From positions 253,284 through 317,283 of the forward strand of contig CAWJFG010000021.1 in assembly GCA_963842015.1 (NCBI GenBank): DNA of 64,000 nt. Reading direction: 5' to 3'. This DNA is from an uncultured Acidimicrobiales bacterium (GTDB lineage: Bacteria > Actinomycetota > Acidimicrobiia > Acidimicrobiales > VFJN01). The notes under the pieces are model-generated. The model was not told the origin of the DNA and did no database searches. It saw only the letters and a program-made list of their open reading frames with translations. Positions 3,834-41,206 of the stretch are shown here, in pieces (position 1 is the stretch's first letter; the number at the start of each line of letters is the position of its first letter). The position numbers and the translations under genes are program-made.

Positions 3834-6380
3834 GTGCTCAAGGTCGCACTCCGGGGCCTGATGGCCCACAAGGGGCGCATGCTCACGACGTTCGCCGCGG
3901 TGGCGCTGGGCGTGGCGTTCATGGGCGGTGTCCTCGTGCTCACCGACACCATGAACCGGTCGTTCGACGATCTGTTCGCGGACGTGTTCCGCGACACCGA
4001 CGCCGTGGTCCGGTCGAACCAGACGTTCTCCAGCGACTTCGGCGACATCCGTGGCCTGATCGACGCCGACCTCCTGCCCGACGTCGAGTCGGCCGATGGC
4101 GTGCGCGCCGCGGCCGGCAGCAGCGACGGCTTCGCCCAGATCATCGACAAGCAGGGGGACCCCGTGGGCGACCCCGCGTTCGGGGCCCCGACGTTCGGGT
4201 CCACGTGGATCGCCGACGACGAGCTCAACCCGTTCGACCTCACCGACGGACACGCTCCCGAGGCCGACGACGAGATCGTGATCGATCGCAAGTCCGCCAA
4301 GGACACCGGCTACCAGGTCGGCGACACGGTGACCGTGCAGTCGCCGGGTGGCGTCAGCGACTTCGAGCTCGTCGGCATCGCCCGCTTCGGCACCACCGAC
4401 AGCCCGGGCGGCGCGTCGTACGTGATGTGGACCGAGGAGGCCGCCATGCGGTGGGTGGGCGAGGCCGGCCGCTTCTCGTCCATCTCGGTGTCGGCCGACG
4501 ACGGCGTGTCCCAGCAGGAGGTGGCCGACTCGATCGACACGACGCTGCAGGCCGAGGACGTCTCGGGCGTCGAGGTCGTCACCGGCACCGAGATCACCGA
4601 GGAGACCCAGAGCGACATCAAGCAGTCGCTGTCCTTCATCACGACGTTCTTCCTCGTGTTCGCCGTGATCGCCCTCGTCGTGGGCACCTTCGTGATCTAC
4701 AACTCGTTCTCGATCATCGTGGCCCAGCGCACCCGTGAGATGGCCCTGCTGCGAGCGATCGGCGCCCGTCGCCGCCAGGTGCGGCGGGCGGTGATGGTCG
4801 AGGCCGTGGTCGTCGGCCTGGTCGGCGCGTCCGTGGGCTTCGTCATGGGGTTGGGCGTGGCCACCCTGCTCGGGTCGGTGCTGGGCATACCCGGCGACGG
4901 CCTCGCCATCGTGCCGACGTCGGTCGCCGTGGCGATCGTCACCGGCGTGATCGTGACGGTCGTGTCGGCTCTGCTGCCGGCGTGGCGGGCATCCCGCGTG
5001 CCGCCCCTCGCCGCCATGCGCGAGGTCGCCGTCGACCGGACGGGTCGATCCCGGGTCCGGTTCGTCGTCGGGCTCGCCGTCCTGGCTGCCGGCCTCGTCG
5101 CGGTCGTCGTCGGGGCCACGGGCAGCACGATCGAGACCGTGGGGCTGGGCGTCGGGCTGGTGTTCCTCGGCCTCATCCTCGTCTGCCCCGGGCTGGCCCG
5201 GCCGGTGAGCCGAGCCATCGGAGCGCCGGTCCAGCGGTTCCGGGGTGCCTCCGGGCGCATCGCCCGCGACAACGCCAGCCGCAACCCGCGGCGCACCTCC
5301 GCCACCGCGCAGGCGTTGATGATCGGCGTCGGCCTGGTGGCCCTGCTCCTCGTGGTGAACTCGTCGATCCGGGCCTCGATCGACAAGACGCTCGACGACA
5401 GCTTCGCGGGCGACTTCGTCATCCAGTCGGGGGCGTTCGGGATGATCGGCCTGCCGCCCACCGTGGCCGCCGACATCGAGCAGATCCCCGACGTCTCGAT
5501 CGTGGCGCCGGTGCGGTTCTCGCCGGCGACGGTCGACGGCGACGACGAGGGCGTGACCGGCACCAACGAGGGCGCGTTCGAGCTGCTGGACCTGACCCTG
5601 GTCGAGGGGAACGCGGACCTGGCGTCCGGCGAGATCGTGATCACGAAGGGCCGGGCCGACGACAGCGGGCTCTCCATCGGCGACGAGATCCCCGTCACCC
5701 TCGTCGACGACGACCGGCCTGCGTCGGCACAGAACGCCACCGTCGCGGGCATCTACGAGGCGCCGGAGGGGGCTCCCGACCTGGGTGCCTTCATCATCGG
5801 GCTCGACGACTTCACCGCCGCCGCCCCGAGCTCGAGCGACGCGCAGATCTTCGTGCAGATCGCCGACGGGGCGACGATCGCCGAGGTCGAGCCCGAGATC
5901 GAGCAGATCGTGGCGCCGTACGCGGCGGCCGACGTGCAGAGCGTCGACGAGTACAAGGACAGCATCAAGAGCCAGCTGAACGTCTTCCTGCTGCTGCTCA
6001 TCGGGTTGCTGCTGCTCTCGGTGGTGATCGCCGTGCTCGGGATCGCCAACACGATCGCCCTGTCCGTCCTCGAGCGCACCCGCGAGATCGGCCTGCTCCG
6101 GGCCGTGGGGATGCGTCGTCGCCAGGTGCGGGCGACCGTGCGATGGGAAGCCGTGATCATCTCGCTCTACGGGACGGTCCTCGGCCTGGCCTTCGGCCTG
6201 GTCGGCGGGTGGGGCCTGGTCCGAGCCCTGCGTGACGAGGGGTTCGGCGTGTTCGAGGTCCCCGTGGTGCCGTTCATCGCGGTCGCGTTCCTGGGTGCCG
6301 TGATCGGCGTCCTGGCCAGTGTCCTGCCCGCCTGGCGGGCCAGCCGGATGAACGTCCTCGACGCCATCTCGACCGAGTGA
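3834..6380 (+). CDS. ABC transporter permease with two FtsX domains (MacB-type)
   Basis: GTG 3834 sits 2 nt after the ATPase stop and in frame with ORF 3468..6380. Two repeats of the 4-TM FtsX pattern are present (REMALLRAIGARRRQV and REIGLLRAVGMRRRQV), separated by large extracytoplasmic loops. Confidence 0.85.
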   Translation: MLKVALRGLMAHKGRMLTTFAAVALGVAFMGGVLVLTDTMNRSFDDLFADVFRDTDAVVRSNQTFSSDFGDIRGLIDADLLPDVESADGVRAAAGSSDGFAQIIDKQGDPVGDPAFGAPTFGSTWIADDELNPFDLTDGHAPEADDEIVIDRKSAKDTGYQVGDTVTVQSPGGVSDFELVGIARFGTTDSPGGASYVMWTEEAAMRWVGEAGRFSSISVSADDGVSQQEVADSIDTTLQAEDVSGVEVVTGTEITEETQSDIKQSLSFITTFFLVFAVIALVVGTFVIYNSFSIIVAQRTREMALLRAIGARRRQVRRAVMVEAVVVGLVGASVGFVMGLGVATLLGSVLGIPGDGLAIVPTSVAVAIVTGVIVTVVSALLPAWRASRVPPLAAMREVAVDRTGRSRVRFVVGLAVLAAGLVAVVVGATGSTIETVGLGVGLVFLGLILVCPGLARPVSRAIGAPVQRFRGASGRIARDNASRNPRRTSATAQALMIGVGLVALLLVVNSSIRASIDKTLDDSFAGDFVIQSGAFGMIGLPPTVAADIEQIPDVSIVAPVRFSPATVDGDDEGVTGTNEGAFELLDLTLVEGNADLASGEIVITKGRADDSGLSIGDEIPVTLVDDDRPASAQNATVAGIYEAPEGAPDLGAFIIGLDDFTAAAPSSSDAQIFVQIADGATIAEVEPEIEQIVAPYAAADVQSVDEYKDSIKSQLNVFLLLLIGLLLLSVVIAVLGIANTIALSVLERTREIGLLRAVGMRRRQVRATVRWEAVIISLYGTVLGLAFGLVGGWGLVRALRDEGFGVFEVPVVPFIAVAFLGAVIGVLASVLPAWRASRMNVLDAISTE

Positions 6381-22562: not shown

Positions 22563-23453
22563 ATGCCCGCCATCGAGCTGTCCGCCGGCACGATCGACTA
22601 CCTCGACACCGGGGGCGACGGCCCGGTCGTGGTCCCGGTGCACGGTGTGATGATGGACGCCACGGTCTGGCGAGAGGTGGTCGCCGACCTGCGCACCGAC
22701 CACCGCTGCGTCGTCCCGACCCTGCCGCTCGGCGCCCATCGCCGGCCGATGCGGCCCGGCGCCGACCTGTCGATGACCGGCCAGGCCGACCTGCTCGGCG
22801 AGCTCATCGAGCGCCTCGGCCTCGACGACCTCACGCTGGTCGCCAACGACTGGGGCGGCCCGCTCGTCACCGCGGTGCGGCATGCCGACCTCGTCGACCG
22901 CCTGGTCGTGACGCCGTGCGAGGCGTTCGACAACATGCCCCCGGGCCTCCCGGGCCGGTTCGCCGAGATCGCGGGGAAGATGCCGGGCGGCGTCTTCCTC
23001 GCCGTCCAGGCGCTGCGGGTGCCGGCGCTGCGCCGCCTGCCGACGACCTTCGGGCCGATGGCCGCCTCCCCGATCCCGGGCGACCTCGCGGCCGGCTGGA
23101 TCTCTTCTGCCCGCCACCAGCGGGCCGTGCGCCACGACCTCGAGACCTACATCCGCTCCACCGAGCGCGGCGTGCTCGACGCCATCGTCGACGACCTGGC
23201 CGCGCTCGACATCCCGACCCTCGTCGCCTGGACCACTGACGGTCGGGTCATGCCCGCCGAGCACGGTCCGCGCCTCGCCGAGCTGCTGCCGCACGGCCAC
23301 TACGCGGAGATCCCCGACGGTCGCGTCCTCGTCCAGCTCGACCAGCCCGGCACCGTCGCCGGCATGATCCGCACCTTCATCTCCGACCATCCCCTGGCCG
23401 ATCCGCGGCCCCCTCGCCCCGCGGTGCACGCGTGGGTCGAGCCCCGGCCGTGA
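22563..23453 (+). CDS. Alpha/beta-fold hydrolase (haloalkane dehalogenase/epoxide hydrolase-like)
   Basis: VVVPVHGVMMD and the nucleophile elbow VANDWGGPL are present; the length of 296 aa is typical. Confidence 0.8.
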   Translation: MPAIELSAGTIDYLDTGGDGPVVVPVHGVMMDATVWREVVADLRTDHRCVVPTLPLGAHRRPMRPGADLSMTGQADLLGELIERLGLDDLTLVANDWGGPLVTAVRHADLVDRLVVTPCEAFDNMPPGLPGRFAEIAGKMPGGVFLAVQALRVPALRRLPTTFGPMAASPIPGDLAAGWISSARHQRAVRHDLETYIRSTERGVLDAIVDDLAALDIPTLVAWTTDGRVMPAEHGPRLAELLPHGHYAEIPDGRVLVQLDQPGTVAGMIRTFISDHPLADPRPPRPAVHAWVEPRP

Positions 23454-36460: not shown

Positions 36461-36931
36461 GTGCGCTGCGCCGCCTGTGGGCATCTCGACTCGAAGGTGG
36501 TCGACTCGCGCCAGTCCGACGACGGCGGGGCGATCCGTCGCCGTCGTCAGTGCCTGGCGTGCGGCACCCGGTTCACGACCTTCGAGCGGCCCGAGTCGTC
36601 GGGCCTGACGGTGCTCAAGCGTTCGGGCGATCGCGAGGCGTTCGACCGCGCCAAGGTCGTGTCCGGCATCCAGGCCGCGGTGAAGTCCCGCCCGGTCGGC
36701 TCGGGCGAGGCCGAGGCCCTCGCGCTCTCGGTCGAGGACGAGATGCGGGGGCTGCCGAGCGGCGAGGTCACGAGCGAGCGCATCGGTCGGGCCGTGCTCG
36801 AGGGCCTGCGCGAGCTCGACGTCATCGCCGCGGTGCGGTTCGCCTCGGTCTACAAGGGGTTCGACGACCTCGCCGACTTCGAACGCGAGCTGACGCTGCT
36901 GACCAAGCGGACTGCGCCCAAGCGGCACTGA
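36461..36931 (+). CDS. nrdR: Transcriptional repressor NrdR
   Basis: MRCAACGHLDSKVVDSRQ...RRRRQCLACGTRFTTFE zinc ribbon followed by an ATP-cone. Confidence 0.95.
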   Translation: MRCAACGHLDSKVVDSRQSDDGGAIRRRRQCLACGTRFTTFERPESSGLTVLKRSGDREAFDRAKVVSGIQAAVKSRPVGSGEAEALALSVEDEMRGLPSGEVTSERIGRAVLEGLRELDVIAAVRFASVYKGFDDLADFERELTLLTKRTAPKRH

Positions 36932-36941
36932 TCGCGCCGGC

Positions 36942-37721
36942 TCAGCGGGCGCGCACGTACCGCAGGAAGAGGTTGTCGTCGGCCAGGAGCACGCGGGCGA
37001 GGGAGTGGTGACGGCCGACCACGGGCGCCGGGCCGTGGGCGATGCGCGCTCCGGTGCCCGCCACCATCGAGGGCGCGATCGTCAGGCACAGCTCGTCGAG
37101 CAGGTCGTCGGTCACGAGCTGGCCGAGCGTGCGGGGCCCGCCTTCGCACACCACGACACGGGCGCCCAGCTCGTCGTGGAGCAGCGCGAAGGCGCGTGCC
37201 CAGTCGACCTGCTCGTCGCCGACGACGTGGACGTCGGCCACCTCCTCGAGAGCGCGGCGCCGAGCCGGGTCGGCGGACGCCACGGTGAGGACGAGGGGGC
37301 GGGCGTCGGGCGTCGCCTCGGCGAAGAACCGGCGTGTCGGCTCGATGGCGAGCGACGCCGACGTGACCGCGATGCGCGGCGTCGGCGACTGACCCCGGGC
37401 GACCCGCTGCTCGCGGACGCGGGCCGCCGGGCGGCTGGGCCCGTAGTCCTCGGTCGTGACCGTGGCGGCTCCGGCGACGATGACGTCGGCCACCCCGCGG
37501 ATGGCGCCGAACATGGCCTTGTCGTCCTGCCCCGCGAGTCCACCCGAGCGGCCCTCCGTGTCGGTGGCGCTGCCGTCGATCGATGCGATCATGTTGGCGA
37601 GGACCCACGGGCGGCCCGAGGGTGCGGGGCGATCGTCGGCGGCGACGACCGCCACCGGATCGAGCGGGTCGTCGTCTCCCCGGTCGTCGTCGGTCGGAGG
37701 GGCCGGCCACAGCATCCGCAT
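36942..37721 (-). CDS. RibD C-terminal-domain / dihydrofolate-reductase-family reductase
   Basis: VLANMIASIDGSATDTEGRSGGLAG..DKAMFGAIRGVADVIVAGAATV...VVCEGGPRTLGQLVTDDLLDELCLTIAP. Confidence 0.75.
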   Translation of the reverse strand: MRMLWPAPPTDDDRGDDDPLDPVAVVAADDRPAPSGRPWVLANMIASIDGSATDTEGRSGGLAGQDDKAMFGAIRGVADVIVAGAATVTTEDYGPSRPAARVREQRVARGQSPTPRIAVTSASLAIEPTRRFFAEATPDARPLVLTVASADPARRRALEEVADVHVVGDEQVDWARAFALLHDELGARVVVCEGGPRTLGQLVTDDLLDELCLTIAPSMVAGTGARIAHGPAPVVGRHHSLARVLLADDNLFLRYVRAR

Positions 37722-38192
37722 GCAGCGTGCACGGTAGCGAGGCCGGCCGGACCGGTGGACAAGATGGCCGGCTGGGGAAATCGCGGTGACCTTTCCACCT
37801 CCAATTCACAGGTTCATCCTCTAGTCGTCCACAGCCCATTCCCCGTAGGTTGCCCCTCGTGCAACTGTGCTCCGGCGCGGACGAGCGGAATGGCGGTTGT
37901 CGCTTCCGAGTCTGTGGTGGGCTGAGCGACTCCTGAGGGCGAGCCGTCCACCGGGTGGTGGGGGGTTGCGGTCTTCAACCTGCGAGTCCGCGCCGGGCCG
38001 GTCGCACGAGAGCTGGGTTGGGTCGACGGGGGGCATCCTTCGGGGGTGTCTGCGCCGTCGCCACACCGCCGCGTCTCGTGCGCTCGACGCCGTCCGCGCC
38101 GGGGACAGGGGCACCGATCCGGGAAGGTTCAGGGTCCCCGCAGCGTTGAACAAGTGCTGTCCGGAACGGGTGGGCGACGATGTCGGAAGCCC

Positions 38193-38221
38193 TTGACGAT
38201 GTAGTTACACGGCTGTAGTTT
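38193..38221 (+). promoter_or_regulatory. Candidate sigma-A promoter of nrdJ
   Basis: TTGACG (38193-38198), a 17-nt spacer, then TAGTTT (38216-38221). This is about 105 nt upstream of the nrdJ ATG. Confidence 0.5.
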
Positions 38222-38238
38222 CCACCCACATCTTGTGG
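38200..38238. promoter_or_regulatory. Two NrdR-box-like palindromes overlapping the nrdJ promoter
   Basis: TGTAGTTACA (38200-38209) lies in the promoter spacer. CCACATCTTGTGG (38226-38238) lies at the predicted start site. They only loosely resemble the acaCwAtATaTwGtgt consensus as I recall it. Confidence 0.35.
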
Positions 38239-38247
38239 CTCCCCGGT

Positions 38248-38272
38248 CAGCTACCACAAGCCCTGGTAGCTG
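38248..38272 (+). other. Stem-loop in the nrdJ 5' leader
   Basis: CAGCTACCA (38248-38256) pairs perfectly with TGGTAGCTG (38264-38272) around a 7-nt loop. Confidence 0.5.
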
Positions 38273-38326
38273 GCTCAGGTCGCAACTCTCCCCACCGCGA
38301 TCTCCGAACGACCTGGAGGAATCCCC

Positions 38327-41206
<2,880 letters not shown>

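Follow-up and report, generated by a model that had tools for sequence, protein, structure and literature searches.

A predicted three-way-junction RNA with an apparent promoter of its own in front of nrdJ in Acidimicrobiia

What stands between a ribonucleotide reductase gene and its divergent neighbor when the space between them encodes no credible protein? The question is raised by positions 37722-38192 of a 64-kb piece of Acidimicrobiales DNA (hereafter the window, meaning the whole stretch that was analyzed). These positions form part of a 605-bp divergent intergenic region between a gene with a RibD_C domain and nrdJ. Ribonucleotide reductase (RNR) sets the supply of DNA precursors, and its control in bacteria is ascribed to NrdR, to DnaA in a few model species and to rare riboswitches. 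A preliminary description of the window had listed many complementary segments in the stretch, all of which are present where it placed them, and had judged the stretch to be a structured RNA rather than spacer. That judgment stands: relatives share a covarying fold, and its core lies far below shuffled sequences in energy. We propose that the locus represents a new, well-supported family of structured RNA, situated before nrdJ in Acidimicrobiia and preceded by what appears to be its own promoter. On balance we also favor the view that the stretch serves as the control region at the front of nrdJ and is mostly transcribed toward that gene, and that the RNA is a new cis-acting leader, either riboswitch-like or protein-binding. 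The RNA probably helps to control the amount of the enzyme.

A coding function was rejected. The open reading frames (ORFs) of the stretch are rich in Arg, Pro and Gly, and their frames are broken by indels relative to the closest relative in the genome set (L001), with which the region aligns in blocks at 79% identity. The indels are of 1, 2 and 3 nt, and in the frame of the longest ORF the substitutions are, by our reading, mostly non-synonymous. The earlier statement that no credible ORF exists here is thus borne out.

Could the helices be the chance product of GC-rich spacer? Folding compared with dinucleotide shuffles lends some support to this idea when large pieces are taken: neither the entire 605-nt intergenic region (z = -0.84 on +, -0.10 on -, not significant) nor 37998-38150 (z = -0.54), which holds most of the helices of the preliminary description, is more stable than its shuffles. 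The result is different for 37856-38010. Folded alone, this sub-region reaches -93.2 kcal/mol (z = -5.07), its minimum-free-energy (MFE) structure is also the centroid, and none of 200 shuffles is as good. It is therefore this part, and not the region as first drawn, that passes a shuffled control. The conserved core of the helix-rich stretch is 37856-38010; the helices at 38003-38139, on which the emphasis had been placed, are not that core. A repeated sequence also speaks against chance. All copies of the 11-mer GTCCGCGCCGG in the 64-kb window, exactly three, fall inside a span of 230 nt. A 12-mer had been reported twice (37986-37997 and 38092-38103), correctly, and a third copy, the reverse complement at 37872-37882, had been missed. 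Because this reverse-complement copy pairs with the first 12-mer copy, the core possesses a conserved closing stem, P1, in which the first 12-mer copy is the inner 3′ strand and its pairing with 37872-37882 is the heart of the stem.

The core belongs to a common arrangement: a promoter-like block (37802-37851) and, beginning no more than about 5 nt past it, a + strand RNA of about 155 nt (Table 1). We compared it with 80 related loci retrieved via NrdJ from Acidimicrobiia-like metagenome-assembled genomes (MAGs), and with 10 more relatives that were fetched later, all gathered through nrdJ. Downstream of the -10 hexamer of that block the sequences of these loci look unrelated, yet each folds to the same shape: a long P1, a 5′ junction (...CGG-A(A)UGG), a variable hairpin P2, a short hairpin P3 and a 3′ junction (NAAC-CUG). 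Across the family the junction strands measure 4-5 nt (AUGG), 0-2 nt and 4 nt (NAAC), and compact members (L025, L041) are 97-98 nt long.

The shape was captured in a covariance model. Alignments of diverse members by MAFFT mis-registered the 5′ junction, and a seed of 4 sequences with a hand-checked structure was used instead and iterated twice to a third model, R3. An R2 model, in whose training the window had no part, finds a single match upstream of nrdJ in the window, at 37865-38003; its score of 14.6 bits is weak alone. With R3 the window scores 43.5 bits (E = 4e-5). R3 yields 25 instances (E <= 0.2) in 91 sources, every one of them on the nrdJ strand and upstream of nrdJ in a sampling that was centered on nrdJ loci, and weaker matches occur at the syntenic place in four more loci. 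The RNA is found in 9 of the 10 newly fetched relatives, none of which was used in training, and L001, also untrained, scores 36 bits. A second R3 match in the window (22622-22710, 18 bits, E = 2.6) lies inside long ORFs and was dismissed as chance. In a metagenome scan with the pattern CGGATGG-N45-75-CCTGAACCTGYG, the 80 loci among the matches listed are chance matches, as none of them fits the model.

The helices are maintained by compensatory change. In the alignment of the 25 sequences, 85.4% of the cells are standard pairs, a share that drops to 35-47% if the 3′ partners are slid by 1-3 columns, and double changes are seen in 31 of the 33 pairs, as against 13-16 in the slid controls. None of 500 shuffles reaches any of the observed covariation measures, and sets of 11 and 16 sequences give the same picture. 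The alignments were fitted to the model, which favors structure, and two controls are independent of the fit. RNAalifold predicts the same three helices. An alignment-free control of the variable part of P1 gives a mean of -28.3 kcal/mol for a strand with its own partner and -15.5 kcal/mol with the partners of other loci; the own partner ranks first in 11 of 16 cases, the exceptions being close relatives. P2 and P3 are likewise kept by compensatory changes. The junction sequence stays fixed while the three helices vary, and a G.U pair sits atop P1 in 24 of the 25 sequences. Taken with the energy of the core, the three copies of the 11-mer and the recurrence in nine independent relatives, this covariation leaves the spacer explanation with next to no credibility: it is refuted for 37802-38108 and could still apply to 38146-38192.

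The RNA is on the + strand, since the G.U pair, the model scores and the folding energy all favor it. For the same loci the covariance model gives 77-98 bits on the + strand and 15-16 bits on the - strand, and the core folds to -93 kcal/mol on the former and to -77 on the latter, a difference of 16 kcal/mol. The same data bear on whether conservation is of DNA only, that is, of sites for regulators or of a cruciform, with the RNA fold incidental. The reverse strand of the core also folds well (z = -4.98), the first 130 bp of the stretch are clearly DNA signals, and loci without the full RNA keep ...CGCGAACGGCCTCTGACCTG just upstream of the nrdJ-proximal promoter, maybe as a site for a protein. 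Yet G.U pairs are pervasive in the helices and would be mismatches on DNA, the helix sequences are free to change provided that they pair, and the opposite strand loses about 60-80 bits in model score. We consider a DNA-only explanation very improbable.

Is the fold a known one? The preliminary description had matched it to no known family, and Rfam 15 agrees: at gathering thresholds there are no matches in the 64-kb window and none in 16 homologous loci, and at E <= 10 there are chance matches only, none overlapping the junction RNA on its strand. A full-text search of the accessible literature library found no paper linking nrdJ to an RNA motif. Several named classes were tried and set aside. 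Cobalamin riboswitches have a B12 box plus a core of GGGAA / GGUGAAAxUCC / GCCACUG; RF00174 and its variants give no covariance-model match even at E <= 10, and a short ACCUGC string is the only resemblance. Riboswitches of the purine/2′-dG class (RF00167 type) have a short P1, conserved junction strands and kissing, conserved L2-L3 loops. The present RNA has a three-way junction as well, and was nevertheless rejected as a member because its P1 is of at least 24 bp, the lengths and loops of P2 and P3 vary and there is no model match. In the hammerhead ribozyme, CUGANGA joins stems I and II, GAAA joins stems II and III, and the third junction is one nucleotide long; here neither the junction order nor the sequences fit, and there is no Rfam match. 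Resemblances to the fluoride and guanidine-III riboswitches failed on junction order and/or for absence of a model match. The RNA resembles orphan structured RNA motifs found by comparative genomics, which include riboswitch candidates and ncRNAs of unknown function (e.g., PMC7266159, PMC11109978), in its defining marks: covarying helices, a conserved core and a fixed link to one gene family in one lineage. The difference is that the junction RNA is absent from all 4227 families of Rfam 15.

What drives the synthesis of this RNA? The preliminary description had treated all of 37722-38192 as potential RNA. Only the later part holds RNA structure; the first ~130 bp (37722-37851) are promoter DNA. 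Three DnaA-box-like 9-mers (a, b and c) follow one another head-to-tail, spaced by 3 and 2 bp, and lead to a -10 hexamer of the form TAnnnT. A profile hidden Markov model (HMM) of this distal block detects it in 28 of 80 loci, and all of these matches share the strand of nrdJ and precede the gene by 220-1040 nt. The shared pattern is AATTCACA-N3-(G)TTRTCCNCT-N2-..CCACAG(G)-N10-13-TAnnnT, and the consensus of 24 instances reads AATtCAca..gT..TCC.CTTcC..tCCACAGG. TAnnnT stands 10-13 nt past box c in all 24 listed instances and in 11 members of the clade of the window, among which the triple-box block is nearly invariant. In low-GC relatives the middle box is TTATCCACT. The closing stem of the RNA begins 0-10 nt after the distal -10 in at least 20 loci; in the window, the usual spacing of 6-8 nt after a -10 would place the start of transcription at about 37857-37859. 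Two helices of the preliminary description fall away here. GTTGC/GCAAC shares bases with the last part of the -10 hexamer and with the beginning of the RNA, and it lies outside the conserved fold. So is the long-range pair CCACAG/CTGTGG, which joins box c to the loop of P2 and which we treat as a chance complement.

The block at 37802-37851 is probably a distal promoter of the activator type, aimed at nrdJ and dependent on DnaA. In E. coli, DnaA binds pairs of boxes of the same orientation 2 or 3 bp apart, including those upstream of nrdA and nrdD (PMC11317965), and it regulates nrdAB (PMC8203912). The present arrangement is similar in that an RNR gene is preceded by head-to-tail 9-mers of the TTATCCACA type at a spacing of 2-3 bp (PMC11317965; PMC8203912): E. 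coli nrdA carries TTATCCACAaagTTATGCACT and low-GC Acidimicrobiia carry AATTCACAgggTTATCCACTtcCTCCACACA. It differs in having three boxes, the last over the -35 position, and in lying far upstream, where it feeds a structured RNA. The putative boxes of the window agree with the DnaA consensus at only 6-8 of 9 positions (by our count against TTATCCACA / TTGTCCACA, 6/9, 7/9 and 8/9 for the individual boxes).

Some further observations concern such boxes. An extra TTGTCCACC at 37754-37762 on the - strand, some 40 nt upstream of the triple box and in reverse orientation, matches the actinobacterial DnaA box at 8/9 positions and is not conserved in L001. Perfect TTGTCCACA and TATCCACA boxes occur in nrdJ promoters of more distant Actinomycetota (L070, L071 and L078, near 3859-3930), which supports a putative general link between DnaA-type boxes and nrdJ. 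In two low-GC freshwater lineages (L055, L056) the distal promoter is followed by a hairpin, AGTCAT-TT-ATGACT, and seven T, with no junction RNA; the product looks like a short terminated transcript.

Nearer to nrdJ lies a second promoter (38193-38221), which the preliminary description had recognized; it is real and widely conserved upstream of nrdJ. The pattern TTGACA-N4-TGTAAYTACA-N4-TGTAAT is found there in ~60 of 81 sources, and TGTAAYTACA, a conserved 10-bp palindrome within the promoter spacer, suggests an operator of a regulator other than NrdR. After the proximal -10, most loci have CCACAACATCTTGTGG-type boxes (CCACA...TGTGG palindromes), and between the two boxes a run of five to seven G is conserved in many loci (e.g., L004, L007, L011, L016). 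The NrdR operator consists of two partly palindromic 16-bp boxes 15-16 bp apart (PMC13584703). The palindromes of the window share with such operators (PMC13584703; PMC12051234) the paired CCACA...TGTGG boxes right after the nrdJ -10 and the proximity of nrdR. They differ in that the second box is degenerate, and they lie outside 37722-38192. Since the linker is of 13 bp and not the canonical 15-16 bp, we call these palindromes NrdR-like only.

Is the RNA, then, a leader of nrdJ? The presence of the proximal promoter had led the preliminary description to regard the stretch as not obviously the nrdJ leader. This we would revise: the distal promoter is a second conserved promoter that aims at nrdJ, and two loci (L036, L065) have their RNA 105-126 nt before the nrdJ ATG with no proximal promoter between. 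Because none intervenes, the RNA can hardly be anything else there than part of the nrdJ 5′ untranslated region (UTR). In the favored model, transcription of the window would start near 37857 under the protein that binds the boxes, most likely DnaA as at E. coli nrdAB, and would continue across both the RNA and the NrdR-controlled proximal promoter to reach nrdJ. With such a start and such read-through, the RNA would be a cis-acting 5′-leader element.

The same promoter, standing directly in front of the RNA, could also serve an independent small RNA (sRNA) gene, whose product, a discrete RNA of ~150-250 nt ending before the proximal promoter, would act in trans or by binding a protein; its tie to nrdJ would then be no more than a shared location and shared regulation. 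The separate and complete downstream promoter that nrdJ possesses in ~60 of 81 sources suits this alternative, as does the distance from the RNA to the proximal -35, which varies freely from 6 to ~200 nt. An sRNA gene does not demand, however, that orientation and position relative to nrdJ be kept in 25 of 25 instances, nor does it fit L036 and L065, where nrdJ has no other promoter. The joining of the 5′ and 3′ ends by a long stem is typical of many stable small RNAs, and the hairpin and T run of L055/L056 stand behind the same promoter; yet the RNA offers no conserved unpaired seed or loop through which it could base-pair, and no recognizable terminator follows the RNA in the window, where a scan for intrinsic terminators found none in 37400-38500, or in the low-GC members L042 and L041. 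Simple promoter and terminator scans found neither kind of signal, a result of little weight because the scans also miss the conserved TGTAAT-type -10. We regard an sRNA gene as the main rival, though less likely than the cis-acting leader.

In the cis-acting model, the invariant junction would form the pocket in which a small ligand or a protein binds, and its occupancy would lock P1. The RNA has two of the general marks of a riboswitch: a covarying, aptamer-like fold with a conserved core, and a constant position 5′ of nrdJ on the same strand (25/25). RNR genes are known to carry riboswitches, 2′-dG-sensing ones in Mesoplasma and cobalamin-sensing ones upstream of nrdAB in Streptomyces. As in these, a structured RNA lies 5′ of an RNR gene on the same strand; as in the purine/2′-dG class, in which junction nucleotides form the pocket, there is a three-way junction; and the clade of the window offers two mutually exclusive pairings. 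The differences are the lack of sequence or covariance-model similarity, a P1 of at least 24 bp in place of a few, loops that are not conserved, and a complete second promoter that usually lies between the RNA and the gene. The junction RNA might even be an aptamer that defines a riboswitch class of its own and reports a nucleotide-pool or cofactor signal to nrdJ behind a DnaA-driven, replication-coupled promoter, a speculation that we consider improbable. Candidate signals would include dNTPs, deoxynucleosides, ATP/dATP, and adenosylcobalamin if it turned expression ON; for an enzyme that depends on B12, a switch turned OFF by B12 would be illogical.

The leader might also sense nothing. A 5′-terminal stem could stabilize the distal mRNA or offer a site to RNase III, for which a stem of at least 24 bp is long enough; the stem begins at about +1, and no general expression platform has been found. 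A mere stabilizer, however, needs no fixed junction, and here 24-25 of 25 sequences preserve the junction and the G.U pair despite changes throughout the three helices; P2 and P3, too, are maintained by compensatory changes. A passive leader is therefore unlikely.

How might the cis-acting leader influence nrdJ? In the lineage of the window, additional structures follow the junction RNA. What had been described as the main nested helix, CGCACGAGA (38003-38011) with TCTCGTGCG (38074-38082) enclosing CGACGG/CCGTCG and an inner hairpin, is indeed one hairpin, H2, with compensatory changes. For the innermost C(UUCG)G hairpin the range given, 38037-38044, is slightly imprecise and reads CCTTCGGG. 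Between the window and L001, 33 pairs of H2 are kept, with 5 double changes and none broken. In 11 members of the clade, aligned by MAFFT without fitting to any structure, the three segments of H2 are 81-90% paired, and double changes occur in 15 of the 33 pairs. H2 is absent in L209 and has an unremarkable folding energy. The base of H2 and the outer 9 bp of P1 are in competition.

Beyond H2 lies a sequence that we call the switch, whose pairing with the 5′ strand of P1 excludes P1. In the full 337-nt leader this long-range helix replaces P1 in the MFE and centroid structures alike, and its duplex energy is -38.2 kcal/mol, compared with -29.7 for the matching part of P1. The switch sequence is kept in 8 of the 11 clade members, standing out as an island of conservation where the sequence on either side has diverged, and in L202 a change of C to U at 37882 goes with one of G to A at 38092, so that the pair is kept. 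The third hairpin, H3, can form only when the switch is unpaired from the P1 5′ strand. It contains the GGGGAC/GTCCCC helix of the preliminary description, whose strings are where they were said to be and whose pairing is weakly supported: only 68% of the cells are paired in the clade, and no U-tract follows. The modeled leader of this lineage can thus adopt two exclusive folds, the junction with H2 and H3 or the long-range helix. The state of P1, locked or unlocked, would select between H3 and the long-range helix downstream, and the fold chosen would set how many transcripts from the distal promoter reach nrdJ.

Several facts weigh against the picture of a cis-acting, DnaA-controlled leader. 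We infer both the start site and the read-through from sequence. The distal promoter is also found without the junction RNA (e.g., in L013, L048, L050 and L054-56). The DnaA assignment rests on resemblance; matches to single DnaA boxes are not enriched in the window, and a regulator of the OmpR family, with direct repeats of ~11 bp, would also fit the box pattern. Most loci have a complete promoter, NrdR boxes included, interposed between the RNA and nrdJ, an arrangement that is uncommon among riboswitches and just as compatible with a separate RNA gene. In typical riboswitches P1 is short and depends on the ligand, whereas here it is very long and stable, and only about a dozen nucleotides, none of them in loops, are strongly conserved. 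The switch helix draws its support mainly from conservation among close relatives and from one clean compensatory change, and 31 of 500 shuffles reach its paired fraction. In a family-wide comparison, finally, the P1 strands pair with downstream sequence no better than cross-locus controls outside the sub-clade of the window.

Table 1. Features of the nrdR-nrdJ region of the window
Feature	Position	Strand	Remarks
nrdR	36461-36931	+	Pfam Zn_ribbon_NrdR 6.6e-21, ATP-cone 3.7e-15; adjoins the RibD_C gene
RibD_C-domain gene	36942-37721	-	Pfam RibD_C 3.8e-27; divergent from nrdJ; called ribD-like in the preliminary description
Candidate -10 of the RibD_C gene, TACCGT	37731-37736	-	9 nt before ATG; read from sequence
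Box a, CAATTCACA	37802-37810	+	DnaA-box-like 9-mer
Box b, TCATCCTCT	37814-37822	+	DnaA-box-like 9-mer
Box c, TCGTCCACA	37825-37833	+	DnaA-box-like 9-mer; covers the -35 position
Distal -10 hexamer, TAGGTT	37846-37851	+	TAnnnT, 10-13 nt after box c
Three-way-junction RNA, ~155 nt	37856-38010	+	Covariance-model match 37865-38003
P1	37856-37882 with 37986-38010	+	Closing stem, at least 24 bp
P1 top	GCGG 37885-88 with CUGC 37980-83	+	Across a GA/GA internal loop
J1/2, AAUGGC	37889-37894	+	
P2	37895-37933	+	Hairpin
P3	37934-37977	+	Hairpin
J3/1, CAAC	37976-37979	+	
H2 hairpin	38000-38088	+	Specific to the clade of the window; holds 38003-11/38074-82, 38024-29/38055-60 and the UUCG-loop hairpin
Switch sequence, CGUCCGCGCCGGGGACAG	38091-38108	+	Includes the second 12-mer copy; 18 bp with the P1 5′ strand, 37865-37883
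H3 hairpin, CGCGCCGGGGAC / GUCCCCGCAGCG	38095-38145	+	Inverted repeat; includes GGGGAC/GTCCCC
Proximal promoter	38193-38221	+	TTGACG 38193-98; palindrome TGTAGTTACA 38200-09; -10 TGTAGT/TAGTTT 38214-21
NrdR-box-like palindrome, CCCACATCTTGTGGC	38225-38239	+	
NrdR-box-like palindrome, ACCACAAGCCCTGGTA	38253-38268	+	
nrdJ Shine-Dalgarno, GGAGGAA	38315-38321	+	
nrdJ, class II B12-dependent ribonucleotide reductase	38327-41206	+	Pfam Ribonuc_red_lgC 2.9e-142, Ribonuc_red_2_N, TSCPD

The family itself shows variation at some loci. Several of those without the full RNA (L004, L007, L008, L011, L014, L015, L017, L023, L029) keep GCAAAC..TTCGCGARCGSCCYNTGACCTG 25-60 nt upstream of the proximal -35. 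This corresponds to the P3 3′ strand, J3/1 and P1 top of L002/L003, and may be a reduced RNA or, because TTCGCGAA is palindromic, a DNA site. In L020, L033 and L040 the distal promoter and a variant RNA with a long stem lie 930-1040 nt upstream of nrdJ, with the proximal promoter at 570-670 nt, which makes for an unusually long 5′ UTR.

The RNA keeps its place and strand relative to nrdJ, whichever gene borders it on the far side. The order nrdR / RibD_C (antisense) / intergenic region / nrdJ is common to the close relatives L201, L203, L205 and L207, and the gene upstream of the RNA differs beyond the window and its close relatives, where it is the RibD_C gene. It looks like a sugar kinase gene in L008/L014, by our reading of the sequence; in L208 the neighbor is DivIVA and the junction RNA is absent. 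In L013 nrdR seems to lie directly upstream of the nrdJ control region, as read from the C-terminus of nrdR, and for this reason the RibD_C gene seems to have been inserted between paired nrdR and nrdJ genes. In L202 (121-1500), whose NrdJ is 97% identical, the gap of ~1.4 kb from nrdR to nrdJ has no called RibD_C gene; a pseudogene or a missed gene call may be the cause. An exact database look-up of the RibD_C protein of the window returned no record. If TACCGT is its -10, the RibD_C mRNA would be near-leaderless; L001 keeps the TAnnnT form there as TACGGT.

As to nrdJ itself, the best match to the first 400 residues of the protein among species-representative genomes is from a MAG, at 91% identity. 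Some close NrdJ homologues (P0042, P0043, P0098, P0110) are of 1250-1400 aa and contain intein/homing-endonuclease domains (PF14528, PF14890). In the close relative L206 a gene with a reverse-transcriptase domain (4686-5874, a weak RVT_1 match) lies directly 3′ of nrdJ.

In closing, we return to what the RNA may mean for its hosts. Acidimicrobiia are a large and mostly uncultured class of actinobacteria, abundant in soil, freshwater and the sea. The locus suggests that in them RNR control has a third, RNA-based layer: a conserved, folded leader placed between a promoter of the DnaA-box type and the NrdR-controlled promoter of nrdJ. The analysis also provides 25 sequences as the seed for a covariance model. 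Were the junction to bind a metabolite, it would define a new riboswitch class tied to DNA-precursor synthesis, and were it to do so as an aptamer behind a DnaA-driven promoter, a single leader would combine the status of replication initiation with that of the DNA precursors. Should the RNA instead bind a protein or be a separate RNA, it would still be a new RNA family, well supported and with a well-defined place in the genome.

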